DNA of 64,000 nt from Nitrososphaeria archaeon (GCA_029775855.1 JARVJZ010000006.1:76353-140352); one strand, 5' to 3'. Positions 13,301 to 62,172 are shown, counted from the stretch's first letter. Translations and numbers: made by a program. Notes: generated by a model not told the origin, from the sequence alone.

Positions 13301-13304
13301 AGAA

Positions 13305-13847
13305 ATGGCTGCAGAACCTTGGCAAGTAGCTGAAATTTCTGGACCTGTGAAGGCGTTTGTCATACAGAAGCCAGCGGTAGTAGTAGGGATGATGAGGAAG
13401 GCTCAGAGAGCGGTGTTAGTAGCTGGACACTTATCGCTCCAGAGGTTAAAAGAAGGCTCAGCGCTAGACTACGCTCTTGACATCGCCAAGTTTGGTGGAG
13501 CGGACTTCGTAGCAACAGCGCACATCATAGGTGAAGTGAAGAATAGAGGATACGATAATGCGTATTCTATGCCGGCAATGGATATAGCTGGTAGGCTTCA
13601 GGACGCCGAATGGAGCGGGTTAGACGGTAAAGGAAGATATGATTTAGCCCTATTCATAGGGCTGCCTTACTATATGGCTTGGACCATCCTTTCAGGCTTA
13701 AAGCATCGTGCAACGCATCTTAAAACCATCTCGATAGACAAATATTATCAGCCACACGCTACTTGGTCATTCCCAAACCTTACAGAGCAAGCTTGGGAGG
13801 AGAATCTAAAGGCTGTTAAAGAGGCGCTTAGAGGCGTAAGGCGTTAG
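13305..13847 (+). CDS. cdhB: Acetyl-CoA decarbonylase/synthase complex epsilon subunit
   Basis: 180 aa, 4 nt after cdhA. WSGLDGKGRYDL and LSGLKH...KTISIDKYYQPHATWSFPN resemble the remembered CdhB pattern (W.GLDG.G.YD, ISI..Y..A..SF.N). Confidence 0.8.
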   Translation: MAAEPWQVAEISGPVKAFVIQKPAVVVGMMRKAQRAVLVAGHLSLQRLKEGSALDYALDIAKFGGADFVATAHIIGEVKNRGYDNAYSMPAMDIAGRLQDAEWSGLDGKGRYDLALFIGLPYYMAWTILSGLKHRATHLKTISIDKYYQPHATWSFPNLTEQAWEENLKAVKEALRGVRR

Positions 13848-24851: not shown

Positions 24852-27800
24852 ATGGTAGAAGAAGGTGTTAAAGCGGTCTCTGCTATAAAATTCTCAGTTT
24901 TTTCACCAAATGAGATTAGAAAATATTCTGTGACAGAAATCTCAGCCCCTGAAACATATGATGAAGATGGCATGCCAGTCACAGGCGGACTTATGGACAG
25001 TAGACTTGGAACTCTAGAGCCGGGGCAAAAATGTGCAACTTGTGGTAACACCGCTGCTAGATGCCCGGGGCATTTTGGGCATATTGAGTTAGCTGAACCA
25101 GTCCTACACATATCCTTCGTAGATGATATTAGAAAGATACTAGTTTCAACCTGTAGGTCGTGTGGAAGGCTTCTGCTTCCTCAAGAAGCTATTGATGAAT
25201 ATAGGGCTAAGTTGTCAGAGAATAAACCGTACGCGCCTTCTCTTGCTGAAGAGATAACTAAGGAGATTCTGGCTAAAACTAAAAAAGTCAAGGTATGCCC
25301 GCATTGCGGAAAACCTCAGTATGAAATTGAGTTTACTAAACCTACTACCTTCCATGAAATTACAGAATGGGGTGGTGCTACGCGCCTACTCTCAGTAGCC
25401 ATACGCGAAAGGCTTGAGAGAGTGCCAGATGACGATCTTAGGCTCTTAGGGTATGACCCTTCATCAACTAGACCTGAGTGGTTTGTTCTGCAGGTTCTTC
25501 CAGTGCCTCCCGTCAACGTAAGGCCTTCTATTACTTTAGAGTCAGGTATAAGATCTGAAGATGATTTAACACATAAAATCGTTGATATACTGAGGGTTAA
25601 TCAGAGGGTTAAAGAGAGCAAGGAGTCTGGCACTCCACCTTTGATAGTGCAAGACTTGGTTGATTTGCTTCAGTATCAAGTTACAACCTATTTTGACAAT
25701 GAGGTCTCGGGAATACCTCAAGCGCACCACCGTTCAGGTAGACCCCTAAAGACGCTAAGCCAAAGGTTAAAGGGTAAAGAGGGGCGATTTAGAGGAAGCC
25801 TATCTGGGAAAAGAGTTGACTTCTCAAGTCGAACAGTGATCTCTCCAGATGCTAATTTAGATATATGCGAAGTCGGTGTCCCCTATGAGGTTGCGAAGAA
25901 GCTAACTATACCTGAGCGTGTAGCTCCTTGGAACATAGAGTTTTTGAGGAAACTTGTTCTTAATGGTCCGGATAAGCATCCTGGGGCTAATTATATAATT
26001 AGGCCCGATGGTGTAAAGATTCGTCTAGACTATGCTTCAGACCGTTCTGCTATAGCTGAGAGTTTAGGTTTAGGCTATGTGGTTGAGAGACATCTGATGG
26101 ATGGGGATATTGTGCTATTTAACAGACAACCTTCGCTGCACAGAATGTCTATAATGGCGCATTATGTTAAAGTTTTACCCTACCGCACATTTAGGCTTCA
26201 CCCAGCGGTATGCCCACCCTATAATGCAGACTTCGACGGCGATGAAATGAATCTGCATGTGCCTCAAAGCGAAGAGGCTAGAGCAGAGGCACTCATGCTT
26301 ATGAGGGTTCAAGATCAAATAATATCGCCTAGATACGGTGGACCTATCATAGGTGCCATACGCGACTATCTTACTGCTGCATATCTTTTGACTCATGATT
26401 CGACTAGATTGACTAAAGAAGAGTTTACGAATCTGGCTTTGGCTGGAGGGTATGTTGGTGAGCTACCTGAGCCGGTTGAAAAGACACCTGAACCGCTTTA
26501 CAGCGGTAAGCAGCTCTTCTCACTGTTTTTACCTAAGGACTTTAACTATGTTATGGCTTCTAAATGGGCTAAAGGTAATGTTAAGGATGTTGTAGTTAAG
26601 AACGGCGAGCTGATCAGTGGTGTCATAGATAGGGCTTCTATAGGTGCTGAAGAACCTAATAGCTTACTACATCGAATAACAAAGGATTACGGCACAGAAG
26701 AAGCGAGAAGGTTCTTAAACGCTATTCTCTCAGTTTTGAGGGCATACATAACGAGAAGAGGGTTCACCTATGGATACGACGACCTCAATCTATCAAGCGA
26801 TGTTCTGCAGAAGATAGAAGAAGCAATAAAGGAGGCATATAATGAAGTGGCTAAGCTCTTTACCCTCTACGAAAAGAAGCAACTTCCTTTGGCTCGCGGC
26901 TTATCGCCTGAAGACGCTCTTGAACTCTACATAGTAAATGAACTTCAGAGGGCAAGAGATAGAGCTGGAAGAATAGCTGACAAAGCCTTCCCACCACACA
27001 ACCCAGGTGTAATTATGGCTAGAACTGGAGCAAGAGGCTCTCTGCTCAACATAGGGCAGATGTCCGCATCTTTAGGGCAGCAGTCTGTGCGTGGGCGTAG
27101 GATAGAGAAAGGCTATCAAGATAGGGCTCTTCCGCATTTTATGCCTGGTGAACGGTCTCCTGACGCGAAAGGATTTGTTAAGTCTAATTATAGGGATGGG
27201 TTATCACCTGTTGAATTTTTCTTCCACGCGATGGGTGGGCGTGAAGGGCTTGTAGATACCGCGGTTAGAACTCAGCAGAGCGGGTATATGCAGCGTAGAC
27301 TTGTTAACGCTATGGAGCATCTTAGAGTTGAATATGATCTGAGTGTAAGAGACCCCTATGGGCACATTATTCAATTTGTATACGGTGAGGATGGCATAGA
27401 CCCTGCGAAGAGCGACCACGGTATGGCGGTCAACATACCTAGACTTGTGGATACAGAAGCACTCATATCAAAACCTTCTAAGCCGGCTTCAGAAGAAGAA
27501 GTCAACAAGATCATTAAGAAATATGTTAAAGTATTTAACCCCCGTTTAATTCAAGAATTGCAAGCAGCGCTCAAAGAAAACCCACTTAACAAAGAATCTA
27601 TTGAAAACGTCTGTAAACGCATAGTTGAACTGATTAAAAAGGCTACGGTTGAACCTGGAGAAGCGGTTGGTGTAGTTGCAGCACAATCGGTAGGTGAACC
27701 CGGCACTCAGATGACTCTGAGAACCTTCCACTTTGCTGGTGTTAGAGAAAAGGATGTCACCTTGGGCTTACCTCGTCTAATAGAGTTGGTTGATGCGAGG

Positions 27801-28715
27801 AAACAACCTAGCAAAGCATCCATGACAGTTTACATAGATCCCAAATACGCTGCGGCTGCGCTTAAGAGGGCTGAAGAGGAGAATAAGAGCAGATGGGCTG
27901 AGTTGAAGCCTGAGGAGCTGGAGCAAGAGAAGAATAAGATATTAAACCAGGTCGCACTTAAGGTTGCTAAGCAGATTCTATTCACTAAAGTTAACGATCT
28001 AGTAGCCAACGCTGAAGTTGACTACACAAATGAGGCAATTGTAATAAAAGTTGATAGAGATAAACTTGCTGAAAGGGACTGCACACTGGAGGAACTAAAG
28101 AAGGTAGTAGAAACTGGTAAACGCAAAGTCGAAATCGACGAGGAAAACGCTGTTTTGAGGGTTTACTTAGAGGGGCTAGACATAATCGGCTTAAACATCC
28201 AACTAGATAAAATACTGAATATGAAAGTTAAAGGCATACCAAACATCAGCAGAGTGACTGTTGAAAAAGAAGGACAGGAATGGGTCATAAGAACTTCAGG
28301 CTCAAACTTCTCAAGAACACTTAAAGTTGAAGGAGTAGACGCTACCAGAACCATAACCAACAACATCTTCGAAATAGCTCAAGTGCTAGGCATAGAAGCT
28401 GCCAGAACAGCGCTAGTAAAGGAGATCATGAGCACACTCGACGAGCAAGGACTTGAAGTAGACATTAGACACATCTATTTAATAGCTGATCTAATGACGG
28501 CAAAGGGCTCTGTACAACAGATAGGTAGGCACGGCATAGCAGGCACAAAGACCAGCGTGCTTGCAAGAGCTGCCTTTGAGATAACAGTACCAACGATAGC
28601 TGAAGCATCAGTTAAAGGTGAAGTGGAGGAACTTAGAGGTGTAACAGAGAATGTAATTGTAGGTCTGACGATACCAGTAGGCACAGGTATGGTAGACCTC
28701 TTTATGCAGAGTTGA
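24852..28715 (+). CDS. rpoA: DNA-directed RNA polymerase subunit A, A' and A'' portions fused in one ORF (Rpo1)
   Basis: 1287 aa. A'-type motifs (CATCG..[26 protein letters not shown]) run without a stop into the A''-type region ([32 protein letters not shown] ... [11 protein letters not shown]). Confidence 0.98.
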   Translation: [1287 protein letters not shown]

Positions 28716-48560: not shown

Positions 48561-51092
48561 ATGGTTTCTAATGATTCTGATGTAAAGATATGCTATGTTA
48601 GCGGCGGGTTATGTGGTCATTCACGCTCCGGACCTCCTATGGAGGTTCATGTTAAGGATGGTAAGATCATTAGGGTGCTGCCCTTCCGAGTACCGGATGA
48701 AGTTAGACTCTATAAGATCAAGACGAGCAAAGGCGAGTTCACAAGACCCAGGAGAACTGTGCCAGCAGCATTTATGCTCGCTCACAAAAAGAGAGTGGAT
48801 TCGCCGAATAGATTAAAGTATCCTTTGAAGAGAGTGGATTGGAGCCCTGAAAATAGGAACCCTCAGAATAGGGGTAAGAGTGGATATGTTAGGATAAGCT
48901 GGGATGAAGCTATAGAAATAATCGTTAACGAGATCAAAAGGATAAAGGAGGTTTACGGCACAACCGAAGCGGTTTTGGTGCAAGCTGATGGGCATGGTCA
49001 ATCAGGGCTGCTGCACACATTCCATTGTTACGGCCACTATCTATTCGACAAGCTAGGAGGCTACACCTCACAAGTGAGGAACCCAGACAGCTGGGAAGGC
49101 TACTACTGGGGCGCAAAGCATGTATGGGGCTTCGATGCTCAAGTAGGTGAGCCGATTCAAGACGCGATCTTTGATGACATCTTAGAGAATTGTGAGATGC
49201 TGATATTCAGCGGCTGCGACCCTGAAACTACGCCAGCAGGCTTCGCTGGGCAGATAGGCACAATAATGTGCAGATGGATAAAACAGGCTGGAATAAAGAT
49301 CGTTGGTATATCGCCTGACTTAAATTACGCTGAAGCCGTGCACGCTGATAAATGGATACCCATTAAACCCAACACAGACGCAGCCTTATACTTGGCGATA
49401 GCATACACTTGGATCAAAGAGGACACATACGACAAGAAGTTTGTGCAGACACACTGCATCGGCTTCGAAGAATTCAAGAAGTATGTTTTAGGTGAAGAAG
49501 ATGGTGTTCCAAAGACACCAGAGTGGGCTGAGAGAATCTGTGGAGTGCCTGTTGAGACGATAAAGGCGCTTGCAAGAGCTTGGGCTAAGAAGAGAACATC
49601 CCTAGCAGTATTCTTCGGAGGACCTAAGATAAGGGGGCCTTATTGTAGTGAGGTTGCGAGGATAGAAGCGATAGTCTTATCTATGCAAGGACTTGGTAAG
49701 CCGGGTAGGCAATTCTTTAGATTTTGGTATAGGCTTGGCTTAGGCTGTAAGAAGCTTTCGCCTATACCTAGATATCCTGAGGTGGATGCTGAGGGGACTC
49801 CTCCGAACTTTGCTGAACCTTATGTATATATGCCTCCAACCAGCAGATCTTTCGTTATTAAAACGCTGGTGCCAGAAGCTATTCTTAATCCTCCTGTTAG
49901 TTGGTATTGTGCCGGCTCTATTATTTGCCCTCGTGAAGATCAGTTCACCAAATACACCTTCCCACCTTCAAAAGATCATCCTGGTATACATATGATTTGG
50001 AACGAGAATGCTTGCTGGACTGCTTGCTGGAGCAACGGCTATAAGATGATTGAGGCTTTAAGGAGCGAGAAGATAGATTTTGTAGTCGGTATACATCCCT
50101 GGTTGGAGAATGATCTGCTGTATGCTGACCTTATACTTCCAGCCCAGACCATATTTGAGCATGATGACATAGTTCCAGTGAATCATACAGATATTGTAGG
50201 TTTGGTTTATCAAGATAAGTGCATAGAGCCTGTTGGTGAATCTAAGAGCGACTATGAGATACACCGCCTTATAGCTGAGAAACTTGGTATCGGCGATGCG
50301 TTTCCACCGCCTGAGGAGGCGTTAAAGAAAGCCTATGAGAAGACATTGGCAGCTAAGAAGATGAGTTGGGAGGAGTTCAAGAAGAAGAAGGTTGTGATCT
50401 ACGACTGCCCAACTCCAGAGGAGTGGGAAGAAATTAAGAGGAAGTATAATGTTAAGCCTGGGTTGACTTGGTTCTATGAAATGCCTGAGGGTAAGGGTTT
50501 GGAGACACCAACTGGGAAACTTGAATTCTACTCTACGGGTCTTGCCGAGCACTTTCCAGACGATAAAGAAAGACCACCTTTACCACGCTATTTGCCTCAT
50601 GGTGAAGCACATCAAGAGAGCTTAAGTCATCTTAGGGCTGAGAAGTACCCTCTGCTTCTTATGTCTAACCATCCAAGGTGGAGGCTTCACTCTCAAGGCG
50701 ATGATATATCTTGGACAAGAGAGATACCTACCTGCAAAGTTAAAGGGTCTGATGGCTACCTCTATGAGCCTCTTTGGATTCACCCTATAGATGCTGAGAA
50801 AAGGGGTATAAAGAGCGGAGATGTAGTTATGATATTTAACGAGCGCGGCGTGGTTCTTGGAGGCGCATATGTGACTGAGAGGATAATGCCTGGCACGGTA
50901 TACATGGATCACGGTGCTAACCATGATCCAATAGAAGATAAAGTAGATAGAGGTGGATGCATAAATCTGATAGCGCCACCGCCTCACGAGAAGAGAATTG
51001 CGGGGATGGAGGTTAGGGTTCCAGAGATGTGCGCAAGCGGCTATTTGGTTGAAGTTCAAAAGTTGGATGAAGATTATCTGGTAGGTGAGTAA
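48561..51092 (+). CDS. DMSO-reductase-superfamily molybdopterin enzyme, large subunit, pyrogallol-hydroxytransferase-like; no N-terminal FeS motif, no Tat leader
   Basis: 843 aa. VHVKDGKIIRVLP, NPDSWEGYYWGAKHVWGF, AIAYTWIKEDTYDKKFV, GFEEFKKYVLGEEDGVPKTPEWAE, C-terminal RGGCINLI. Confidence 0.75.
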   Translation: MVSNDSDVKICYVSGGLCGHSRSGPPMEVHVKDGKIIRVLPFRVPDEVRLYKIKTSKGEFTRPRRTVPAAFMLAHKKRVDSPNRLKYPLKRVDWSPENRNPQNRGKSGYVRISWDEAIEIIVNEIKRIKEVYGTTEAVLVQADGHGQSGLLHTFHCYGHYLFDKLGGYTSQVRNPDSWEGYYWGAKHVWGFDAQVGEPIQDAIFDDILENCEMLIFSGCDPETTPAGFAGQIGTIMCRWIKQAGIKIVGISPDLNYAEAVHADKWIPIKPNTDAALYLAIAYTWIKEDTYDKKFVQTHCIGFEEFKKYVLGEEDGVPKTPEWAERICGVPVETIKALARAWAKKRTSLAVFFGGPKIRGPYCSEVARIEAIVLSMQGLGKPGRQFFRFWYRLGLGCKKLSPIPRYPEVDAEGTPPNFAEPYVYMPPTSRSFVIKTLVPEAILNPPVSWYCAGSIICPREDQFTKYTFPPSKDHPGIHMIWNENACWTACWSNGYKMIEALRSEKIDFVVGIHPWLENDLLYADLILPAQTIFEHDDIVPVNHTDIVGLVYQDKCIEPVGESKSDYEIHRLIAEKLGIGDAFPPPEEALKKAYEKTLAAKKMSWEEFKKKKVVIYDCPTPEEWEEIKRKYNVKPGLTWFYEMPEGKGLETPTGKLEFYSTGLAEHFPDDKERPPLPRYLPHGEAHQESLSHLRAEKYPLLLMSNHPRWRLHSQGDDISWTREIPTCKVKGSDGYLYEPLWIHPIDAEKRGIKSGDVVMIFNERGVVLGGAYVTERIMPGTVYMDHGANHDPIEDKVDRGGCINLIAPPPHEKRIAGMEVRVPEMCASGYLVEVQKLDEDYLVGE

Positions 51093-51924
51093 GGTGGGTA
51101 AGGTTCTCATTATAGATGTTTCTGAATGCGTAGGATGCTACTGCTGCCAAATAGTATGTAAAGATGAACATGTTGGAAACGATTGGTCACCTTACGCTAA
51201 ACCTCAACCCGACACTGGTCACTTCTGGCTTAAAGTAGATGAAATGGAGCGGGGTACCATACCTAAAGTTAAGGTCACATATACCCCGATCTTATGTATG
51301 CACTGCGACAACGCACCTTGCATACCAGCGTGTCCAGACAACGCCATAGTGAAGAGAGAGGACGGTATAGTGCTCATAAAACCGGAGAAGTGTAGTGGCT
51401 GCAAACTCTGCTTAGACGCTTGCCCATACGGTGTGATCTACTTTAACAGCGAATTGAACATCGCTCAAAAATGCACTCTCTGTGCACACCTCCTTGATAA
51501 AGGCTGGAGTGAGACAAGGTGTGTAGGCGCTTGCCAACGCGAAGCGCTTATATTAGGAGAGGAGGGTGACCCTAAGATCAAAAGTTTAATTGAGAAGAGT
51601 GAGGTGTTCCACCCAGAGTATGGAACTAAACCTAGGGTCTATTATCTTAACTTGCCCAAGCCGTTTATAGCTGGGACCATAGTAGATTCATCTATTAGGG
51701 AATGTGTTGAGGGAGCTACGGTGGTTGCCTTGGATCTAGTTGAGGGTGTGAGGCATCAAACGGTTTCAGACGAGTTCGGGGACTTCTGGCTTAGGGATTT
51801 AAAGTGGATGCACCGATACCTAATTGAGGTATCTAAGGAAGGCTATGCTTCAAAGAAGGTTTGCGTAGTCCATACTGCTAAGGATGTGAATCTAGGCACG
51901 ATAACCCTAACTAAACTCATTTGA
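51085..51924 (+). CDS. Fe-S subunit of the Mo enzyme (four Cys motifs) with a C-terminal all-beta Ig/carboxypeptidase-regulatory-like domain
   Basis: 279 aa, GTG start at 51085 or 51094. CVGCYCCQIVC, CMHCDNAPCIPACP, CSGCKLCLDACP, CTLCAHLL...CVGAC, then IAGTIVDS...FGDFWLRDL...GTITLTKL. Confidence 0.8.
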   Translation: MSKVGKVLIIDVSECVGCYCCQIVCKDEHVGNDWSPYAKPQPDTGHFWLKVDEMERGTIPKVKVTYTPILCMHCDNAPCIPACPDNAIVKREDGIVLIKPEKCSGCKLCLDACPYGVIYFNSELNIAQKCTLCAHLLDKGWSETRCVGACQREALILGEEGDPKIKSLIEKSEVFHPEYGTKPRVYYLNLPKPFIAGTIVDSSIRECVEGATVVALDLVEGVRHQTVSDEFGDFWLRDLKWMHRYLIEVSKEGYASKKVCVVHTAKDVNLGTITLTKLI

Positions 51925-53381
51925 CCATCTATAGTGGGATAGGTTTGTCTTTCCTATTTAGGAGAAAGACAGTAAGCACAGCTCTGAAGGTTTATCCGCC
52001 TAACTTTCAGGTGGAGTCTGGTAGGAGTGTGACATTAAAGGCTCATCTGAATCCTGAGAAGGCGCCTGTGGAGCGTGTTGAGTGGCGTTTAGAGGGTTTA
52101 GGTATACTTTCTGAATCAAAGGGTCCTTCCACTGTGTATACTGCGCCTAATGTAGAGCAGGAGACTAAAGTTAGGGTTGTAGCGTCTTTCCCTAAGATGA
52201 GTGAATACTTAGAGAGCTCATCTTATGCTGAGGGTGTGATCTTACCTTCTGGCTTGGCTGCTAAGTCTTCTACATTTCTTACAATATCTCCTATAAGTTT
52301 TTCGATAAATGCAGGTGAAAACATTGATTTAACAGCTGTTTTGACAGACATGCAAGGAAATCTCTTAGGCAGTAAAGAGATCGTGTGGTTCATACAACCT
52401 CAACTAGGCAAATTAACACCAACATCAAACAACACAGCAGTATACACCGCACCTAAAGTAGATGTTGAAAACCAAATCTTAATCAAAGCAGTCTTTCAAG
52501 GCGATGAGCAGCACCTACCTTGTGAAGGTGTCTCAATAGGCTTAGTGACGCCACCTACACTTAACGACGAATACATACTCAGCTTTAGTAGGGCAGAGGT
52601 ATCAAACCTTAAGATCGATGGTGGAGCTGAGGTTGATGGTGTAAGGGTTGTTAGGATCAGTGTTGACTTGCTTGAAATATCTGATATGAGGATAAGTAGA
52701 GTGAATCTATCCTCGCAAAGCGGAGTTCTACAGAAGGTTGAGATATACGCAACACGCCTCACAGCGCGCATACCAGATTCAGACAAGGGGTTAGATGTTA
52801 AAGGCGAAGATGATATACATCTTAACGCTTCTGAAGCCAGCTTAGATAACGGTGTAATCTACTTTGTGAAGATGAGTTGTCTAAGTGGGGAATTAACTCA
52901 ACCTGAAGTTTTAGGGCGGTATGCTGGTGGAGATGAGCCATACCTACCTATATTACTTACGACATCAAACATAACTATGGATAGGGGCTTTTCAGTTACA
53001 GGACCAGAGACATATGGCATGTTGGAGAATAAAGCTACTAAGATACTCTGCGGGAGAATCTCTGCATCAAACTTCTTCTTAAAATGCCCTAGCAGATACA
53101 GCTTAGATAGAGAGGGAAATAATCACGAGTTTGTTGAAAAGTGGGCTCTAAACGCTTCATCAGCAGCAATAGAGGATGCTGAGATATATGCAATATACTT
53201 CAAGGTAAGAGCCCTATTGGTATGGAGAGTTAAGGCTACTGGAGAAGAGTATATCCCAAGCATAATACCAGAAGGCCTCCACAGAGGAGAAAAAGCGCCG
53301 ATAAACGAGGCGGATGTGGACATAATCTACCTCAAAGCCACTAAACTAAAGGTCAATAACGCATCATTCACTTTAAAGTAG
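51921..53381 (+). CDS. Uncharacterised protein: two Ig-like repeats followed by an unassigned ~280-aa domain
   Basis: 486 aa. Its TTG start shares TTGA with the stop of the preceding gene. Two ~70-aa repeats each carry a (T/A)VYTAPxV motif. No catalytic motif recognised. Confidence 0.6.
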   Translation: MTIYSGIGLSFLFRRKTVSTALKVYPPNFQVESGRSVTLKAHLNPEKAPVERVEWRLEGLGILSESKGPSTVYTAPNVEQETKVRVVASFPKMSEYLESSSYAEGVILPSGLAAKSSTFLTISPISFSINAGENIDLTAVLTDMQGNLLGSKEIVWFIQPQLGKLTPTSNNTAVYTAPKVDVENQILIKAVFQGDEQHLPCEGVSIGLVTPPTLNDEYILSFSRAEVSNLKIDGGAEVDGVRVVRISVDLLEISDMRISRVNLSSQSGVLQKVEIYATRLTARIPDSDKGLDVKGEDDIHLNASEASLDNGVIYFVKMSCLSGELTQPEVLGRYAGGDEPYLPILLTTSNITMDRGFSVTGPETYGMLENKATKILCGRISASNFFLKCPSRYSLDREGNNHEFVEKWALNASSAAIEDAEIYAIYFKVRALLVWRVKATGEEYIPSIIPEGLHRGEKAPINEADVDIIYLKATKLKVNNASFTLK

Positions 53382-55716
53382 AGCGATTCTTCAACAACCA
53401 AAAGACCTTCTCAGGGGTTATAGGAAGACTGGTAACCCTAACCCCTATAGCATCCTTAACACCATTACCTATAGCTGGCGCTATAGGCAGAACCCCTAGC
53501 TCGCCTACCGAGCGTGAGCCGAAAGGCCCAGGCCCTATGCCGCTCTCTAGAATTGTAGTTTCTATGTTAGGTGTCTCAGATATAGATGCTATTAGGTAAT
53601 CCATAAAGGTGCCGTTGAAGATCTGCCCTTCTTCTATAACAAGTTCTTCAAAGAGAGATGTGCTGAAACCCATCCAAGCACCTCCCTTTAGCTGCCCCTC
53701 TACTAAAGCGGGGTTGACCGCTCTACCTACATCGGCTATAACTTTGATGTTCAAGACCTTTATTGACCCACTTTCCGGGTCTACTGCTAAGTCTACTGCT
53801 GCGCAGATAGGCGTGTATTCTAGTGCTACTCTAGGCTTGGATGCTTGCCCTGTTTCTGGGTCTATCTCCGCTAAATCTTCGTAGAAGAAGCCTCTGCCTA
53901 GCAGTAGGCCTGTTTGCTCTATGTATGCTCCACCCATGGGTCCTGCTGTGAAGAGGGTTTCGAGGGGTATCTCTTCAGTTGTATTTTCTGACTCTACCTT
54001 CAACTTTCCGTTGCTGAATGATATTTTATCTTTTGGTTTAGAGAGGATTTTGGAGGCTGCTTCGACTATCTGCCCCTTAAGATCTTTGACTGCTGCCAGC
54101 ACGGCATTACCTAACTGGACGAGCTGCCTACTTCCGCTTGAGCCTGGTGATATAGGCGTTAGGAGGGTATCTGACGAGATCACCCTAACTTTGCTGAGTG
54201 GTATATTGAACTCTTTAGCAACGATCTGAGCAAGCCCAGTAAATGTCCCTTGACCTATGTCTGTAGCGCCGATGTAGAGGTCGATGGTTAGATCTTCGTT
54301 TAGGCGTATAAGTGCTACGCTTGGATAGGTTATGTCACATTGATGCTTCGCTATGGCTACACCCCGACCTACAACCCAACCGTCTATGGGGCTCTTTGGT
54401 TTTGGGTTTTCATCTAAGAGCTTCTTTAATGTGTTTATGCAAAGCCTCATTGTATCGCTGTGTATCTTCTCTCCTATACAGCTCACATCGCTATCCTTTA
54501 AGATGTTTTTCAGCCTAAGTTCTAAGGGGTCTATGTTAAGCCTCTGAGCGATTTCGTTCATCTGAGACTCTATAGCCCAATATATTTGTGTTGAACCGAA
54601 GCCTCTGAACGCGCCTCCTTGAACCTGATTTGTGTAGACTCGATAGATGTCTGCCTTAAAGTTAGGTATATTGTAGACTGAGCTTATGGCGTAGATTGCG
54701 TTTCTTACAACTACATTCCCAGCTACAGAGTATGCTCCGCCGTTATATACTATGCTCATTACTCTACCAATTATCCGCCCATCTTTAGTTACAGCATCAC
54801 TTAACTTAATCTCTGCCTGGTGGCGTGTAGTTGTATACATTAGGTCTTCAAGCCTCGACAAAACGAGCTTAACAGGCCTACCCTGAGTCTTTAGGGCTAG
54901 GGCTGCTACTATCGGCTCATACACAGCTGCACCTCGATTACCAAAACCTCCACCAACATGCTTTGGCACTATGACTCTAATCTTCTGCTCCGGAATCTCT
55001 AAAGCGTCTGAAATCTCTTTTCTGGTTCTAAATGGTGTTTGCCCTGAGGTGTAGATTGTAAGGGAACCATCTGGCTCCTGTTTCGCTATAATAGATGTGG
55101 GTTCAAGTTGTGCGTGCTGCACCGCTTGCGTTGTATAAGTGTTAGTGATGATAAAATCTGCTTGTTTGAATGCTTCTTCTACATCGCCAAACCTTATCTT
55201 TTGCAAAGCCGATACATTCGGTTTATTAGGTGTTAAAGCAACCCTATACAGCTTTGACTTCAGCCGCTTGTAGCGCGATAGATCCTCATGCACAACTGTA
55301 GGAGGCTCTTCAAGTAAGGCCTCTTTGAAGTCAAAGAGAGGTGTAAGAGGTTCATACTCAACATCGACCAACTCACAAGCTGCAAAAGCTATGTCAAAAG
55401 ACTCAGCAGCTACAGCTACTACAGGCTCTCCAATATACCTAACCTTACCCCTTGCAAGTATAGGTGTGTCTAGTAGCCCTCTACCGTGCAGCCCCTTCGG
55501 CACATCTTCTGCAGTGATTACAGCAACTACGCCGCTAAGTGATGTGGCTCTACTTGTGTCCACCTTTTTTATGAGGGCGTGTGGTAATGGGCTCCTCTTT
55601 AAGCACGCATAGAGCATATAAGGTAGGGTGATGTCAGTTGTATACACTGCTTTACCAGTAACCTTCTCTAATCCATATAGATTGGGTGCGCGACTTAAAT
55701 TGTTCATCTTAAACAT
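53368..55716 (-). CDS. Xanthine dehydrogenase / aldehyde oxidase-family molybdopterin-binding large subunit (second copy)
   Basis: 782 aa. GKAVYTTDITLPYMLYACLKRSPLPHALIKKVD, GGGFGNRG, QGGAFRGFGSTQ. Confidence 0.8.
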   Translation of the reverse strand: MFKMNNLSRAPNLYGLEKVTGKAVYTTDITLPYMLYACLKRSPLPHALIKKVDTSRATSLSGVVAVITAEDVPKGLHGRGLLDTPILARGKVRYIGEPVVAVAAESFDIAFAACELVDVEYEPLTPLFDFKEALLEEPPTVVHEDLSRYKRLKSKLYRVALTPNKPNVSALQKIRFGDVEEAFKQADFIITNTYTTQAVQHAQLEPTSIIAKQEPDGSLTIYTSGQTPFRTRKEISDALEIPEQKIRVIVPKHVGGGFGNRGAAVYEPIVAALALKTQGRPVKLVLSRLEDLMYTTTRHQAEIKLSDAVTKDGRIIGRVMSIVYNGGAYSVAGNVVVRNAIYAISSVYNIPNFKADIYRVYTNQVQGGAFRGFGSTQIYWAIESQMNEIAQRLNIDPLELRLKNILKDSDVSCIGEKIHSDTMRLCINTLKKLLDENPKPKSPIDGWVVGRGVAIAKHQCDITYPSVALIRLNEDLTIDLYIGATDIGQGTFTGLAQIVAKEFNIPLSKVRVISSDTLLTPISPGSSGSRQLVQLGNAVLAAVKDLKGQIVEAASKILSKPKDKISFSNGKLKVESENTTEEIPLETLFTAGPMGGAYIEQTGLLLGRGFFYEDLAEIDPETGQASKPRVALEYTPICAAVDLAVDPESGSIKVLNIKVIADVGRAVNPALVEGQLKGGAWMGFSTSLFEELVIEEGQIFNGTFMDYLIASISETPNIETTILESGIGPGPFGSRSVGELGVLPIAPAIGNGVKDAIGVRVTSLPITPEKVFWLLKNRSTLK

Positions 55717-55877: not shown

Positions 55878-57587
55878 ATGTTAGAGTTGGAGGTTTATAG
55901 CCACGACATATTAATTATCGGCGCCGGTCTTGCGGGTCTCAGAGCAGCAATCGCAGCTGCAGAAGTAAGCAAAAACTTGGACATCGCGGTAATCTCAAAG
56001 GTGTATCCAATGAGGTCTCACTCAGTCTGCGCCCAAGGGGGCACAGCAGCGGTAATGAGAGAGGGCGATAGCCACGATCTACACGCTTATGATACCGTCA
56101 AAGGAAGTGACTTCTTAGCAGACCAAGATGTTGTAGAATTCTTTGTAAAAAGAGCAAGTGTAGAACTTGTGAAGCTGGAGCATTGGGGTATGCCTTGGAG
56201 CAGAACAGAAGATGGAAAGATAGCTCAAAGAGCGTTTGGTGGGCATAGCTTCAATAGAACATGTTATTCAGCAGATCTTGTGGGTTTTCAAGAAATGCAC
56301 ACGCTGTATGGGCGCGCCTTAGCATATGACAACATAGGCTTCTATGACGAATGGTTCGTTACATCTCTGATAGCTGAAGAGGGACAAGCAAAGGGTGTAA
56401 CAGCTATAGAACTCAAAACAGGAAGAATGAGCGCGTTCAGGGCGAAGGCGATAATAATGGCAACTGGAGGAGCCTGCAGAATATACCGTTTCACAACCTA
56501 TTCACACACAGCCACAGGCGACGGTATGGCTATAGCCTATAGGGCTGGTGCACCTCTTGAAGATATGGAGTTCGTTCAATTCCATCCAACAGCGCTTGTG
56601 CCAAGCGGTGTATTAATAACTGAAGCAGCCCGTGGAGAAGGCGGCTACCTCCTAAACAGCAAAAAAGAGCGTTTTATGGAAAAGTATGCAAAGGAGAAGA
56701 TGGAACTGGCGCCACGCGACATAGTATCAAGGGCTGAAATGACCGAGATAATGGAGGGAAGAGCATACACTGGACCAGATAGACCCTACATAGCCCTTGA
56801 TCTAACACACTTAGGCGAGGAAAAGATAAACGAACGCCTCCCGTTTATACGCGAAGTAGCGCAGAGGTTAATAGGCGTAGACCCGGTTCATGAGCATATA
56901 CCAGTAGCACCCGCTGCACACTACTCTATGGGCGGTATATCTGCGAACATAAGGACAGCAACGCCTTTGCCTCATCTATTTGCAGCTGGCGAATGTGCTT
57001 GCCTTAGCCTACACGGCGCCAACAGGTTGGGCTCTAACTCTACAGCGGAATGTCTGGTTTTTGGTGCTGTAGCTGGTGAAGAAGCAGCAAAACTTGCGCT
57101 TTCCTCAACGCTCCCAAGTCTACCTAGCGATAAGCTTAGAGAAGAAGAGAAGCGTGTCTTTGACCAAGTTTTGGGAAATGAAGGCGGTGAGAGGATCTCA
57201 GAGATTAGAAGACAAATGATGAATATTATGGATGATAAAGTATGGATCTTTAGAGACGAGCATGGATTAGCAGAAGCGGTTAAGGCGATAAGAGCCTTAA
57301 AGGAGAAGTTTAGAAGGGCTAAAGTTGAAGACACTTCAAGAGTGTTTAATTTAGGTTTGGTAAACGCTCTTGAACTGGACTTTATGCTTGATTTAGCCGA
57401 GGTTACAGCCTTCTCAGCGTTAAACAGAAGAGAGTCAAGAGGGGCACATTCAAGAATAGATTACCCCAAGCGTAATGATACGGATTGGCTTAAACACACC
57501 TTAGCCTACCACACACCAGACGGACCGAAATTAGAATATATGCCAGTAACCATAACGAAGTGGAAACCTGTCGAAAGAAAGTATTGA
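55878..57587 (+). CDS. sdhA: Succinate dehydrogenase / fumarate reductase flavoprotein subunit
   Basis: Track ORF starts at 55839. I favour ATG 55878 ([24 protein letters not shown]). [10 protein letters not shown] (His of the covalent-FAD motif), HPT, RGEGG, and GANRLG.NS present. Confidence 0.9.
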
Positions 57588-59107
57588 AGGAGGTTAAGCT
57601 TTTGGTGGAAGAGAAGATAATCACACTTAATGTGCAGCGATATCAACCAGAGAAAGGGCAGTTCACGACATCAACATATAGGATTCCTGTGAAAAAGGGA
57701 ATGACACTACTCGACGCTCTACTATATGTGCGAGACAACATAGATGGGACATTAACCATCAGACACTCTTGCAGAATGGGCATCTGCGGAAGCTGCTCAG
57801 TAATAGCTAATGGCAAACACCTTCTAGCTTGCTATACACAAGTCCTTGACTTAGGTTCAGACACCATAACTGTTACTCCGATGCAGAACCTCCCCATGAT
57901 AAGAGATCTAGTCCCAGACCTAAAACCATTCTTTGATAAGTATAAACCGATTCAACCCTACCTCATAAAACCAGATAAAGATATGCTTATGGAAGCAGAG
58001 TTCACACAGAAGCCTGAAGAACTCAAAAAGTATTGGAATACAACACTCTGTATAAAATGCGGACTCTGCTACTCCGCTTGCCCAGTCGTCAAATCTAACC
58101 CAGATTTCCCTGGGCCTGCTGCTACCACAACACTATACCGCTTCACAATAGATAGTAGGGACAGCGGTGGAGAAGCTAGGCTTCAGCATACAGGTCCTTG
58201 GCTATGCTACTATTGTGGGGACTGCTCTATAAGCTGCCCTAAAGGAGTTGAACCCGCTGAGTCAATTATGTCTATGCGGCGGCATCTAATAACCAACTAC
58301 GATTGGACGGGGATCTCACGCATGCTCTACAATTCAAAGAAAGCATCGATAATATTCACATTAGGTTTAGCACTACTAACACTGCTCTTAGTCTGGTTCC
58401 TACACGGACCTATAATTACAGATAGAATTGAACTCACAACATTCGCACCAATCGAAATTGTGCACAACGGCGGAATAATATACGGTTTGCTACTTGCTGC
58501 TCTACTACTTAGCAACCTCGGTAGAATGTATTGGTTCACTGTGAAGAAGAGAACTAACGGAAAGCATATACCATTAAGCACCTACTTCAAAGCGTTAAAA
58601 CATGTGGTCTCAGAGTTTCTAGCACAAGCAGGCTACTCCAGATGCACACCAAAACGCGCTTGGATCAACCACTTAATACTCATGTGGGGTTACACAAGCC
58701 TATTCATACTATTTGCAATTCTGCTGCCTTACACACTAGTTAATACTATACTTCCCTTGAGCAACCCACTGCGTTTAGCAGGCTACTTTGGCTTCACAGC
58801 TTTAACATATGCTACCCTCTACGCCATCATAGGAAGAGTTAGAAAGAAGGAGGAGTTTAGGAAATACTCACACCACACAGATTGGATGTTCCTAATACTA
58901 CTCTTACTCACATCCATAACAGGTATATTAATTCACATATTCATAGCGCTCAACTGGCCTCTTCCAACCTACATAATCTTCGCCATACACCTTGCTGTAG
59001 TCGTGCCGCTACTTGCTGAAGTGCCCTTCGGCAAATGGACTCACCTCGCCTACAGACCTTTCGCACTCTACTTTAATAGACTCAAAAGAGAAGCGGGCAT
59101 CCAATAA
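57560..59107 (+). CDS. SdhB/TfrB-like iron-sulfur subunit fused to a six-helix NarI/DsrM/HdrE-like membrane domain
   Basis: 515 aa. The start is more likely TTG 57602 or GTG 57605, behind GAAGGAGG at 57587-57594. CRMGICGSC...C (2Fe-2S), [24 protein letters not shown], then six hydrophobic helices with His residues and a terminal [11 protein letters not shown] motif. Confidence 0.8.
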
Positions 59108-60297: not shown

Positions 60298-62172
60298 TTG
60301 AGCGATTTTAAATACAAAGGCTACTGCTCTAAACTGCTGAGAGTAAATCTAACTTCACAAACCGCTTCTGAAGAACCTTTGAATGAATCTGATGTAGAAA
60401 GATTTATCGGTGGTAGAGGACTTGGCGCGAAGATACTTTTTGACGAAGTCAAAGAAGGCGTTGAACCCCTAAGCCCAGAAAACAAGCTCATAATAACCAC
60501 TGGACCATTAACGGGAACGAGGGTACCTACTAGTACAAACCGCTTTGTAATTACAACAAAATCTCCTCTAACAGGTATCTACGGCTTTTCAGTTTCAGGA
60601 GGAGCATTTGGCTTAGAGTTAAAGAAGGCTGGATACGATGGATTAGTGATAGAAGGCAAAGCGAATAAACCAACATACTTACAGATAGAAGATGGAGAAC
60701 TACATTTTAGAGACGCAGGCTGGCTCTGGGGCATACCAGTATTCGAAGCAACCAGGCTTCTGAGAGAAACCTTAGGTTATGACTACAGAACAATAATGAT
60801 AGGCCCTTCTGGGGAGAAGTTGGTTAAGATCGCAGGCATAATTTCAGACGACCGAAGAGCATCAGCAAGGTGTGGTGTTGGAGCGGTAATGGGCTCAAAG
60901 CTACTAAAGGCAGTGGCGGTCAAAGGCTCAAAAGAATACACATTTGCAGACCCCGCTAAATTCGACGAAGCGTTAAAAGAAGCATTCAAGAACATTGGGA
61001 TACAACCCGGCCCATGGAAGGAGTTCAGACAGACAGGCACCCAATCTGGGCCGATAAAGAACAACGCTTGGGGTATCTTACCTACAGCTAACTGGCGTGA
61101 ATCTGTATTCGATAAAGCTGCTGAAATAAGCTACCCTCTGTTAAGAGAGAGGTTTGTCGTCAAAGATACTGGCTGTAACCAGTGCCCGATAAGATGCACA
61201 AAACTAACCTTGGTTAAGGATGGGCCTTATGCTGGTGCTGCAACTGATGGGCCTGAGTATGAGACGATTTACGCGTTTGGCAGCGCTTGCAAGATAGGTG
61301 ACCCGAGACCTATTATAGCGGCTGATATGCTCTGTGACGATCTAGGGCTTGATACCATGTCTACTGGGCTTACTATAGCTTGGGCTATGGAGGCTCTTGA
61401 GAAGAATGCTATCTCAAAGAGCGAGTTGGATGGGTTAAATTTGAGATTTGGGAGCGACGAAGGACTGCTGAACGCTATCAAGAAGATGGCTTATAGGGAT
61501 GGAGCATTAGGCAAACTACTTTCAGATGGCGTAAGAGAGGCTGCTAGAAAGGTTGGGAAAGGCTCCGAAAGCTATGCTATGCACGTTAAGGGTCTTGAGA
61601 TAGGAGGTTATGACCCAAGAGGCTCAAAGGGGCAGGGATTAGTGTTGGCTGCTGGTTCAAGAGGCGGATGCCATCACGCATATGGTGTGGCTTCCTTTGT
61701 TGAAATACCTCAAGGTACTGCTACAAGCGCTAAAGGAAAGGGGTTGCTCGTTAAGGGAACATTAAGGGTTAGGGTTATGATAGATTCATCCCCTTTATGC
61801 GCCTTCGCAGCATCCAGGGTGCCACCGCCGCTGCTGGCTAGATTAATTTCAGCTGCCACTGGAATGGAGATGCAGCTCTCTGATTTGGAGAGAGCTGCTG
61901 ATAGAATAGCGACACTCGAAAGAGCATATAACGCTAGAGAAGGGGTAAGAAGGGAGCATGACACTCTGCCGGATAGGTTGCTAAAGGAAGCTGTGCCAGA
62001 TGGGCCGAACAAAGGTGCGGTTCTTACACCTGAAGAACTTGAACTTATGAAGACAGAGCTCTATGAAGCCATGGGTTGGGATACTTCTACTGGCATACCT
62101 AAGAGGAGCACGCTGGAGGCTTTAGGGTTGGCTGATGTAGCTTCAGATCTAGCTAGGGCTGGATGTCTGTAG
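60298..62172 (+). CDS. aor: Tungsten-type aldehyde:ferredoxin oxidoreductase family protein
   Basis: 624 aa, TTG start. LLRVNLTS...E, GGRGLGAKIL, GLELKKAGYDGLVIEG, a CNQCPIRC FeS ligand motif, and EYETIYAFGS. Confidence 0.9.
   Translation: MSDFKYKGYCSKLLRVNLTSQTASEEPLNESDVERFIGGRGLGAKILFDEVKEGVEPLSPENKLIITTGPLTGTRVPTSTNRFVITTKSPLTGIYGFSVSGGAFGLELKKAGYDGLVIEGKANKPTYLQIEDGELHFRDAGWLWGIPVFEATRLLRETLGYDYRTIMIGPSGEKLVKIAGIISDDRRASARCGVGAVMGSKLLKAVAVKGSKEYTFADPAKFDEALKEAFKNIGIQPGPWKEFRQTGTQSGPIKNNAWGILPTANWRESVFDKAAEISYPLLRERFVVKDTGCNQCPIRCTKLTLVKDGPYAGAATDGPEYETIYAFGSACKIGDPRPIIAADMLCDDLGLDTMSTGLTIAWAMEALEKNAISKSELDGLNLRFGSDEGLLNAIKKMAYRDGALGKLLSDGVREAARKVGKGSESYAMHVKGLEIGGYDPRGSKGQGLVLAAGSRGGCHHAYGVASFVEIPQGTATSAKGKGLLVKGTLRVRVMIDSSPLCAFAASRVPPPLLARLISAATGMEMQLSDLERAADRIATLERAYNAREGVRREHDTLPDRLLKEAVPDGPNKGAVLTPEELELMKTELYEAMGWDTSTGIPKRSTLEALGLADVASDLARAGCL

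Follow-up and report, generated by a model that had tools for sequence, protein, structure and literature searches.

Complex II is divided by its membrane anchor into classes A–F in one review, and into six types in a second. Here we describe a complex II homolog with what appears to be another kind of anchor. It is encoded by two adjacent genes at positions 55878–59107 of a 64,000-nucleotide stretch of DNA from a Nitrososphaeria archaeon (GCA_029775855.1, JARVJZ010000006.1:76353-140352); the whole stretch is referred to below as the window. The first gene, sdhA, encodes the flavoprotein, and the second encodes an SdhB-type iron-sulfur (Fe-S) subunit fused to a six-helix membrane domain of the QmoC type. 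The original prediction, made from the sequence alone, was that this architecture lies outside the named complex II types. Our comparisons support that view: the pair has no SdhC/D or CCG features, and an anchor of the NarI/QmoC type matches none of the reviews' classes A–F.

SdhA and the SdhB part of the fusion protein both have their closest relatives among type E succinate:quinone oxidoreductases (SQR; SdhABEF of Sulfolobales and sdhABE of Campylobacterota) and the thiol:fumarate reductase TfrAB. The sister locus is arranged sdhA-sdhB-CCG, and the next relatives (P0076 and P0103) are SdhB-CCG fusions. A preprint on the structure of EMO describes archaeal succinate dehydrogenase as lacking a haem-b transmembrane domain. 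Where type E enzymes and TfrB have a CCG/HdrB-like domain, the fusion protein has none (no match to PF02754), and it carries instead an integral six-helix domain with conserved histidines.

Type B complex II (Bacillus subtilis SQR and Wolinella succinogenes quinol:fumarate reductase) is menaquinone-linked, with haems b stacked across the membrane in a separate five-helix SdhC subunit, and coupling to the membrane potential is possible. A common principle is likely, namely one or more haems b beneath the Fe-S subunit and a link to menaquinone. The difference lies in the fold and ancestry of the anchor, which here is a NarI-superfamily domain fused to SdhB. For the SdhC/SdhD/FrdC/FrdD-family anchors of types A–D and F, we found no gene in the flanks or the window, and the membrane half matches no SdhC/D model.

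The membrane half can be compared with four further systems. QmoC of the QmoABC complex of sulfate reducers and the QmoC-like proteins of Hdr/Qmo operons align end to end with residues ~140–501 of the fusion protein, and share its six helices, invariant His, Cys, Arg and Lys residues, and HdrC-like Cys motif. They differ in that the first Cys motif of the fusion protein, and all that lies upstream of it, is SdhB rather than HdrC-like, and in that its partner is SdhA rather than QmoA/QmoB. In EtfD/EMO and HdrDE too, the membrane domain is HdrE-like, its partner is an HdrC-like ferredoxin domain, and the three-His signature is present. However, in EtfD/EMO the membrane domain is N-terminal, has five helices rather than six, and comes with CCG domains, and the electron donor of these systems is electron-transfer flavoprotein (ETF) or methanophenazine rather than a succinate dehydrogenase core. 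NarI belongs to the same superfamily and has the same last-helix form (H-L-x10-P-F-x4-H), but the fusion protein lacks the second helix-II His, has six helices against five, and has a predicted cytoplasmic N-terminus. TcuAB resembles our pair in consisting of two genes, one for an FrdA-like flavoprotein and one for a protein that joins cubane Fe-S motifs to a related membrane domain. Nonetheless, TcuB appears to have no SdhB [2Fe-2S] domain, the fusion protein scores 38 bits against the TcuB cutoff of 524, and TcuA is not an SdhA ortholog.

Results

Gene calls and translation start

The two genes and the putative ribosome-binding site between them are as follows.

55878..57587, + strand: sdhA/frdA flavoprotein subunit, 569 aa plus stop; starts at ATG 55878, stop TGA at 57585-57587
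57586..57593, + strand: GAAGGAGG, putative ribosome-binding site for the fusion gene, read from the sequence; overlaps the GA of the sdhA stop TGA
57602..59107, + strand: SdhB::QmoC-type fusion gene, 501 aa plus stop, from the list of open reading frames (ORFs); P0001 is 100% identical, with the same start

The fusion gene had been described as a 515-aa ORF that overlaps sdhA or follows a ribosome-binding site. Such an ORF exists, from an upstream GTG at 57560. However, the sdhA stop (57585-57587), GAAGGAGG (57586-57593) and a TTG at 57602, 8 nt past GAAGGAGG and just downstream of the sdhA stop, stand in succession. Hence, TTG 57602 is the likelier start, giving a 501-aa product. Public gene calls use the 501-aa form (P0001, 100% identical). 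Residues are numbered throughout on this product, and adding 14 converts them to the 515-aa ORF.

The original prediction also described an sdhA gene starting at ATG 55878 and containing HSVCAQGG, three Cys motifs in the fusion protein, and the absence of any flanking sdhC/D/E/F-like gene. The ORF list agrees with the first of these claims (569 aa plus stop), and all of the quoted Cys motifs are present in the translation (C57/62/65/77, C150-160 and C202-212). Our survey found no sdhC/D/E/F-like gene in the flanks of the pair, and a search of every frame of the whole 64-kb window found no CCG motif.

A complex II flavoprotein

The alignment of SdhA with E. coli FrdA (1kf6_A) spans both proteins from end to end (E = 2e-157), and SdhA passes the cutoff of the NCBIfam model for its SdhA/FrdA subfamily, PRK06069 (888 bits, cutoff 826). 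His48, within HSVCAQGG, is at the position of covalent attachment of flavin adenine dinucleotide (FAD). The equivalents of FrdA H44, H232, T244/E245, R287, H355 and R390 are all kept in the alignment to 1kf6_A; for these site assignments, we assume E. coli FrdA residue numbering. SdhA is predicted to carry covalent FAD and a full dicarboxylate site, and it has both of the features that mark a complex II flavoprotein, the covalent-FAD His and the dicarboxylate-site residues.

A chimeric Fe-S subunit spliced within its ferredoxin domain

The fusion protein can be divided into four parts.

57602..57946, + strand: SdhB [2Fe-2S] domain, residues 1-115, with Cys57/62/65/77; Pfam Fer2_3, E = 3e-29
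57947..58186, + strand: first half of the ferredoxin-like domain, of SdhB origin (residues 116-195) and containing the first cubane motif, C150/153/156/160; tracks SdhB P0022, not QmoC-like P0007
58187..58336, + strand: second half of the ferredoxin-like domain, of QmoC/HdrC origin (residues 196-245) and containing C202/205/208/212 and the linker RRxLxxxYDWTG; identity switches at ~191-197
58337..59104, + strand: six-helix membrane domain, residues 246-501; AlphaFold pLDDT >90, hydropathy, NCBIfam qmoC

The N-terminal half is SdhB. It scores 244.6 bits against PRK05950 (cutoff 228) and matches FrdB (1kf6_B) with an E-value of 3e-47. Across the fusion orthologs, and with the free-standing SdhB of locus L088 (described below) included, identity in the [2Fe-2S] domain is 80–93%. 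The fusion protein thus has the [2Fe-2S] domain and two cubane Cys motifs of a complex II Fe-S subunit.

In a three-way alignment, the fusion protein was compared with P0022 (314 aa), the nearest SdhB that stands free, and P0007, the nearest QmoC-like protein. The fusion protein is SdhB-like up to about residue 190, including the first cubane motif, and QmoC-like from ~191–197 through the linker and the six helices. All eight cubane cysteines are invariant in the alignment of fusions and QmoC-like proteins, and the QmoC-like profile matches HdrC (7bkb_C) over its N-terminal 90 residues (E = 1.6e-19). The fusion protein is therefore a natural chimera, with its junction within the ferredoxin domain, between the two Cys motifs.

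The third Cys motif had been read as a four-Cys, [4Fe-4S]-type motif as in TfrB. The four cysteines are there, but since the junction falls between the two cubane motifs, they arrived with the QmoC segment and are not an SdhB/TfrB feature. A four-Cys second cubane motif is also present in the free-standing sister SdhB (CARCYLCVEACP). In two-cluster ferredoxin folds, each cluster is bound by three cysteines of one motif and a fourth from the other. Because of this three-plus-one ligation, the cluster nearest the [2Fe-2S] cluster would be mostly SdhB-ligated, and the membrane-proximal cluster mostly QmoC-ligated. A splice in the middle of the fold may be tolerated since the surface that faces SdhA stays SdhB and the surface that faces the membrane stays QmoC.

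A QmoC-type anchor

The original prediction was of a NarI/DsrM-like anchor fused to the Fe-S subunit. Our searches agree, and sharpen the assignment to QmoC. NCBIfam qmoC matches residues 164-505 of the 515-aa ORF over model positions 20-360 of 360 (E = 1.8e-38); for the membrane half alone, E-values are 5e-24 for qmoC and 7e-8 for TcuB. Weaker NCBIfam matches of the full protein are to TcuB (6.5e-10; 38.5 bits against a cutoff of 524, residues 215-504 only) and TmcC. Pfam detects only Fe-S domains and a sub-threshold NarI domain (E = 0.007). The best non-fusion homologs are QmoC-like proteins of 365–409 aa, with 51–57% identity over residues ~140–501. The operon of the closest of these, P0007, encodes TusA, an MvhD/FlpD-like protein and two HdrA-like proteins, and is of the Qmo/Hdr type. 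A 45%-identical relative lies in an aprB-aprA-qmoA-qmoB cluster of Desulfofundulus australicus. Genes for QmoA/QmoB (HdrA-like) partners are not among the neighbors of the fusion gene, which are sdhA, a lactonase gene and molybdenum (Mo) enzyme genes; its free-standing relatives are encoded with partners of that kind. From these matches, the anchor is best described as QmoC-type, with an HdrC-like two-cluster ferredoxin and an HdrE-like six-helix domain from a branch of the NarI superfamily.

In the D. australicus operon (L021:8780-11128), aprBA-qmoAB is followed by genes for a CCG protein that resembles HdrCB and the C-terminal part of TfrB (400 aa) and for a QmoC-like membrane protein (381 aa). 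Hence, both kinds of output module stand side by side in this Gram-positive sulfate reducer. A candidate second, independent fusion in Bacteroidales (L059; tblastn, query residues 37-498) was rejected, as it is a separate 376-aa QmoC-like gene behind an HdrA-like gene.

Six helices and three invariant histidines

The six hydrophobic helices claimed for the last part of the protein are supported by hydropathy and by an AlphaFold model of the full-length protein, in which pLDDT exceeds 90 over residues 230-500. The helices are TM1 (246-267), TM2 (284-318), TM3 (351-373), TM4 (389-414), TM5 (425-449) and TM6 (453-472 and 478-497). When residues 140-501 are modeled alone, the mean pLDDT is 87 and pTM is 0.87, and the membrane domain is still above 90. 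From the Lys/Arg-rich loops, we predict a cytoplasmic location for the Fe-S part at the N-terminus, for the C-terminus, and for the loops between TM2 and TM3 and between TM4 and TM5.

We assessed the conservation of His and Cys residues in an alignment of the six fusions with 109 QmoC-like proteins (n = 115). The candidate haem ligands are listed below.

58403..58405, + strand: His268 (WFLHGP, outer end of TM1), candidate second distal haem ligand, by predicted topology only; 103 of 115
58670..58672, + strand: His357 (INHL, cytoplasmic end of TM3), proposed proximal haem b ligand; invariant, 115 of 115
58988..58990, + strand: His463 (AIHL, outer end of TM6), proposed distal haem b ligand; invariant, 115 of 115
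59042..59044, + strand: His481 (KWTHLAYRP, cytoplasmic end of the last helix), proposed second proximal haem b ligand; invariant, 115 of 115

K478, W479 and R485, around His481, are also invariant. The prediction that the NarI-like half has conserved histidines is therefore upheld. It had also singled out a helix with the pattern HH...20 residues...H; these histidines are present, but H424 is conserved in 102 of the 115 proteins, H425 is not conserved, and H445 is found in 63. Hence, the likely haem ligands are H357, H463 and H481, and not the HH...H pair.

According to the EMO preprint, HdrE/EMO-type domains belong to the NarI family and have exactly three conserved His ligands. A proximal haem lies between a His on TM II and a His on the last helix, and the His of the distal haem is 18 residues upstream on the last helix. 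The fusion protein has the same pattern, with H463 and H481 18 residues apart on the last helix and H357 on TM3. By analogy, His357 would correspond to the TM II His. The last helix also matches E. coli NarI H187..H205 in form. We considered the 18-residue spacing as a family constant and dropped it: it is 18 in all six fusions, as in E. coli NarI, and 19 in all 109 free-standing QmoC-like proteins examined, and so is not diagnostic. The free-standing proteins carry an extra residue at the helix break, and the fusions have one residue deleted between the two histidines. The canonical four-His ligation of NarI (H56, H66, H187 and H205) is not seen in the fusion protein, which has no His 10 residues past H357; other candidates for a fourth His, H268 (90%) and H445 (55%), sit on other helices.

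Among homologs with 40–57% identity, 29 of 110 match Pfam Nitrate_red_gam/NarI, with a best E-value of 4e-7. A relationship to NarI is thus better supported by this indirect route than by direct comparison, where the statistics are weak. Sequence and profile searches of PDB sequences with the membrane half gave no match. In structure comparisons with Foldseek, the sole confident match of the membrane half to a solved structure was Mycobacterium smegmatis EtfD, a haem-b menaquinone reductase (9ojn; probability 1.00, 255 columns). The membrane domain of EtfD has been described as holding a haem b between two histidines, 7 Å from the cubane cluster and 4–5 Å from menaquinone.

Conservation and distribution of the fusion

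Five more 90%-identity clusters (P0002-P0006) have the same architecture; they are 73–84% identical and come from independent ENA, JGI and Logan assemblies. It is also found at 89% identity in a GenBank contig (L007) from a metagenome-assembled genome (MAG) of an 'uncultured Nitrososphaerales archaeon', and in at least 10 NCBI MAG protein accessions; NCBI MAG records label the host lineage Nitrososphaerales. Synteny is kept, with sdhA directly upstream of the fusion gene in every ortholog locus examined. For the window against four orthologs, the ratio of nonsynonymous to synonymous substitution rates (dN/dS) is 0.07–0.09 in the SdhB part, 0.07–0.13 in the membrane part and 0.007–0.05 in the junction segment, which is the most constrained stretch of the gene. 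Both halves and the joint are under purifying selection.

We scanned 1.84 billion cluster representatives exhaustively with HMMER, and a single one, P0002, matched both halves; the remaining matches listed in the scan cover only residues ~2-232 or ~139-498. The P0002 cluster also includes 249-aa lactonases and a 727-aa 'SdhB' call, probably because read-through or mis-called genes extend into the downstream lactonase gene and chain the cluster. P0376 and other long SdhB-containing representatives were checked as hidden membrane fusions and rejected, as none has a transmembrane segment; instead, these proteins have soluble tails or domains of the CCG, molybdopterin, cytochrome c or Rieske kind. 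Three metagenome representatives join SdhB-like [2Fe-2S] and ferredoxin domains to other redox partners: P0344 to a molybdopterin oxidoreductase (929 aa), P0377 to a cytochrome c domain (499 aa), and P0310 to a Rieske domain (418 aa). The fusion is found in a small group of uncultured soil archaea.

Public labels for the protein are 'succinate dehydrogenase/fumarate reductase iron-sulfur subunit' at NCBI and 'QmoC' or 'nitrate reductase gamma subunit' at JGI. Full-text literature searches, in which comparative work on complex II modularity was only partly covered, found no description of an SdhB-QmoC/NarI fusion.

Exchange of the electron-output module

The closest free-standing sdhB (P0022) lies at locus L088, in the order sdhA, sdhB and a gene for a 291-aa, SdhE-like CCG protein, followed by pdxT/pdxS on the opposite strand. 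At three loci with the fusion (L087, L091 and L092), sdhA and the fusion gene are followed by the same pdxT/pdxS. Between L088 and L087, SdhA is 93% identical, as is the SdhB [2Fe-2S] domain. The window copy is farther from L087 than L088 is, with 83% identity for SdhA and 79% for the [2Fe-2S] domain. By these identities, the free-standing lineage of L088 is nested inside the fusion clade. Past about residue 116, the SdhB of L088 is only ~54% identical to any fusion. Starting upstream of sdhA and ending near sdhB codon 105–155, the DNA of the two locus types is collinear and ~86% identical; identity resumes at 86% exactly at pdxT, and the 1.2–1.5 kb between are unrelated. The differing segment is L087:9311-10632 in one and L088:3234-4706 in the other, with breakpoints near SdhB codon 105–155 and the end of pdxT. 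Since the flanks are 86% identical while the 3ʹ part of sdhB and the anchor region are unrelated, the electron-output module has been exchanged as a cassette among close relatives.

More distant SdhA relatives (73–76%) pair with SdhB-CCG fusions. Hence, the CCG (sdhA-sdhB-sdhE) arrangement is probably the older state at the locus, and the QmoC-type module would have displaced the CCG gene together with the 3ʹ end of sdhB. The simplest reading is that the fusion arose once and was later replaced in the L088 lineage. Alternatively, the fusion may have spread as a cassette.

Genomic neighborhood

A block of Mo-enzyme genes (48561-55716) lies between thiD and sdhA in the window, relative to L087 and L091. 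It has no gene for a membrane subunit. Its genes are as follows.

Within 48561-55716: Mo subunit of the dimethyl sulfoxide (DMSO)/trimethylamine N-oxide reductase family, 843 aa; below all equivalog cutoffs, with no obvious twin-arginine signal
Within 48561-55716: four-cluster Fe-S subunit with a CarboxypepD_reg-like tail, 279 aa
Within 48561-55716: 486-aa protein without a family match
Within 48561-55716, opposite orientation: Mo subunit like those of xanthine dehydrogenase and 4-hydroxybenzoyl-CoA reductase

The window genes at 41–48.5 kb match those directly upstream of sdhA in L087 and L091. The Mo-enzyme block at 48.5–55.7 kb in the window is therefore, from gene order, an insertion. Class I fumarase genes lie near orthologous fusion loci.

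Elsewhere in the window are cdhA, for the alpha subunit of CO dehydrogenase/acetyl-CoA synthase (CODH/ACS; 1182 bits), with a CO_dh epsilon-like gene (10952-13847), and an aldehyde:ferredoxin oxidoreductase gene (60298-62172). A single 1287-aa ORF (24852-28715) covers both RNA polymerase A' and A'', and its product matches both NCBIfam models.

Discussion

We propose that the two genes encode a two-subunit, membrane-bound menaquinol:fumarate or succinate:menaquinone oxidoreductase that is homologous to complex II. The family matches, the junction and the conserved histidines support the two-gene, complex-II-like enzyme with a built-in NarI-type anchor of the original prediction, and we consider this assignment probable. 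We infer haem binding and number, the quinone partner, the quinone site and the physiological direction from sequence. Electrons would pass from FAD to the [2Fe-2S] cluster and to a [4Fe-4S] cluster held by three SdhB cysteines and one QmoC cysteine, or in the reverse direction. From there they would reach a second [4Fe-4S] cluster, held by three QmoC cysteines and one SdhB cysteine, then a proximal haem b (His357/His481), then probably a distal haem b (His463 and His268 or another ligand), and finally menaquinone/menaquinol. With the quinone site at the distal haem, electrons would cross the membrane, and succinate oxidation by menaquinone would depend on the proton-motive force, much as in di-haem type B enzymes. 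With a proximal site, as in EtfD, the reaction would be electroneutral. The genes for CODH/ACS and aldehyde:ferredoxin oxidoreductase suggest an anaerobic, non-ammonia-oxidising lineage, and for this reason we lean slightly toward menaquinol:fumarate reduction as the physiological direction. An anaerobic host may need fumarate reduction, with fumarase genes near orthologous loci.

Several of our results weigh against this proposal. Pfam NarI (PF02665) scores 16.4 bits on the fusion protein, below its gathering score of 22.9. The relationship to E. coli NarI alone was not significant in an hhalign comparison with the QmoC-like profile (probability 2.6%) or in a Smith-Waterman alignment of the membrane half with a shuffle control (z = 2.1), and the Foldseek probability for NarI (1siw_C) was 0.35. 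The qmoC score of the fusion, 133 bits, is far under the 300-bit equivalog cutoff (NF038018), although the QmoC-like protein of the Desulfofundulus apr-qmo cluster itself scores just 195 bits against this model. For the second ligand of the distal haem, the candidate, His268, is suggested only by topology. AlphaFold models the Fe-S region (residues 100–200) poorly, and cluster-to-haem distances are not readable from the model. In SdhA, Gln53 occupies the position of E. coli FrdA Glu49; Gln at this position is SdhA-like, and it weakly opposes the fumarate-reductase direction. Finally, the EMO preprint reports that the number of haems varies from one to three across the family.

One alternative is that the enzyme has only the proximal haem (His357/His481), with menaquinone beside it on the cytoplasmic side as in M. 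smegmatis EtfD, and that it does not couple to the membrane potential. EtfD is the sole confident structural match, and it has one haem with menaquinone 4–5 Å away and retains the distal His; furthermore, TM3 of the fusion protein has nothing equivalent to the second His of NarI helix II. However, His463, the distal His, is invariant in all 115 proteins and His268, at the outer end of TM1, is 90% conserved, a pattern not easily accounted for if the distal cofactor is missing. Two haems b are reported for the QmoC of sulfate reducers. We therefore regard the mono-haem variant as unlikely, if worth keeping in mind. We see much less room for a membrane domain that serves a partner other than quinone, such as the adjacent DMSO-reductase-family Mo enzyme or an extracellular acceptor; with the Mo enzyme, succinate/fumarate chemistry would be connected to a different redox enzyme. 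In the window and at locus L001, genes for a Mo catalytic subunit, a four-cluster Fe-S subunit and a ~480-aa protein lie just upstream, without an anchor gene. Nonetheless, thiamine genes abut sdhA directly in L087, L091 and L092, and the fusion is still there, as expected if the Mo block is an insertion; in the window, a gene on the opposite strand divides the Mo cluster from the sdhA-fusion pair. We rejected a functional link to the Mo-enzyme cluster as a general explanation, since the cluster is absent from other fusion loci.

The flavoprotein could also act on another substrate, as TcuA does on tricarballylate, in which case the fusion protein would be a TcuB-like FADH2:quinone oxidoreductase. 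TcuAB is a precedent for an FrdA-like flavoprotein that works with a fused Fe-S/membrane protein, and the weak match to TcuB is consistent with this idea. Against it, all of the FrdA/SdhA dicarboxylate-site residues are kept, and SdhA passes its subfamily cutoff. Moreover, the complete SdhB [2Fe-2S] domain is kept in the fusion protein, whereas TcuB appears to have none (the NCBIfam alignment begins at the second Cys motif). Genes for fumarase are also found close to orthologous loci. A different substrate is accordingly very improbable in our estimation. We give almost no credence to an artefact, in which a frameshift, a chimeric assembly or a gene-calling error joined sdhB to an unrelated qmoC. 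We found nothing in its favor; the one oddity is the P0002 cluster, with its lactonase sequences and 727-aa call. Six protein clusters and at least 10 NCBI MAG accessions share the identical junction, and the assemblies behind them (ENA, JGI, Logan and GenBank) are independent. A check for frameshifts or assembly joins found a single continuous frame with no remnant of a qmoC 5ʹ end, and dN/dS is lowest at the junction.

Taking the pair to be a menaquinone-linked complex II homolog, a broader proposal is that it represents a seventh structural class of complex II. Such a class would have two subunits and two haems, would be linked to menaquinone and able to couple to the membrane potential, and would have gained an Hdr/Qmo-family anchor by recombination within a ferredoxin fold; the CCG (SdhE) and QmoC modules would then be naturally interchangeable outlets. 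We consider the arguments for and against this broader proposal to be evenly balanced. On the sequence evidence, the enzyme looks like a variant of a known one rather than a new kind of system, and is rare, conserved and evolutionarily informative.

What is the significance of this architecture? Complex II is classed by its anchor, and the fusion would add an anchor of NarI/HdrE-superfamily ancestry, rather than SdhC/D or CCG, and the first to be fused to SdhB. It would also be a natural example of the "redox construction kit", in which a pseudo-symmetric two-cluster ferredoxin is spliced in the middle and each half keeps its native docking surface. This could be a design principle to copy in engineered electron-transfer proteins. 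Automated annotation hides such architectures: the name given to this one protein, whether SdhB, QmoC or NarI, varies with the pipeline. The presence of a CCG or a haem-b module on near-identical cores (93% identity in protein and 86% in flanking DNA) is a natural experiment on type E anchors. If the modules are interchangeable, this bears on the role of the type E CCG subunit. The exchange also informs how anaerobic archaea link the fumarate/succinate couple to the quinone pool.

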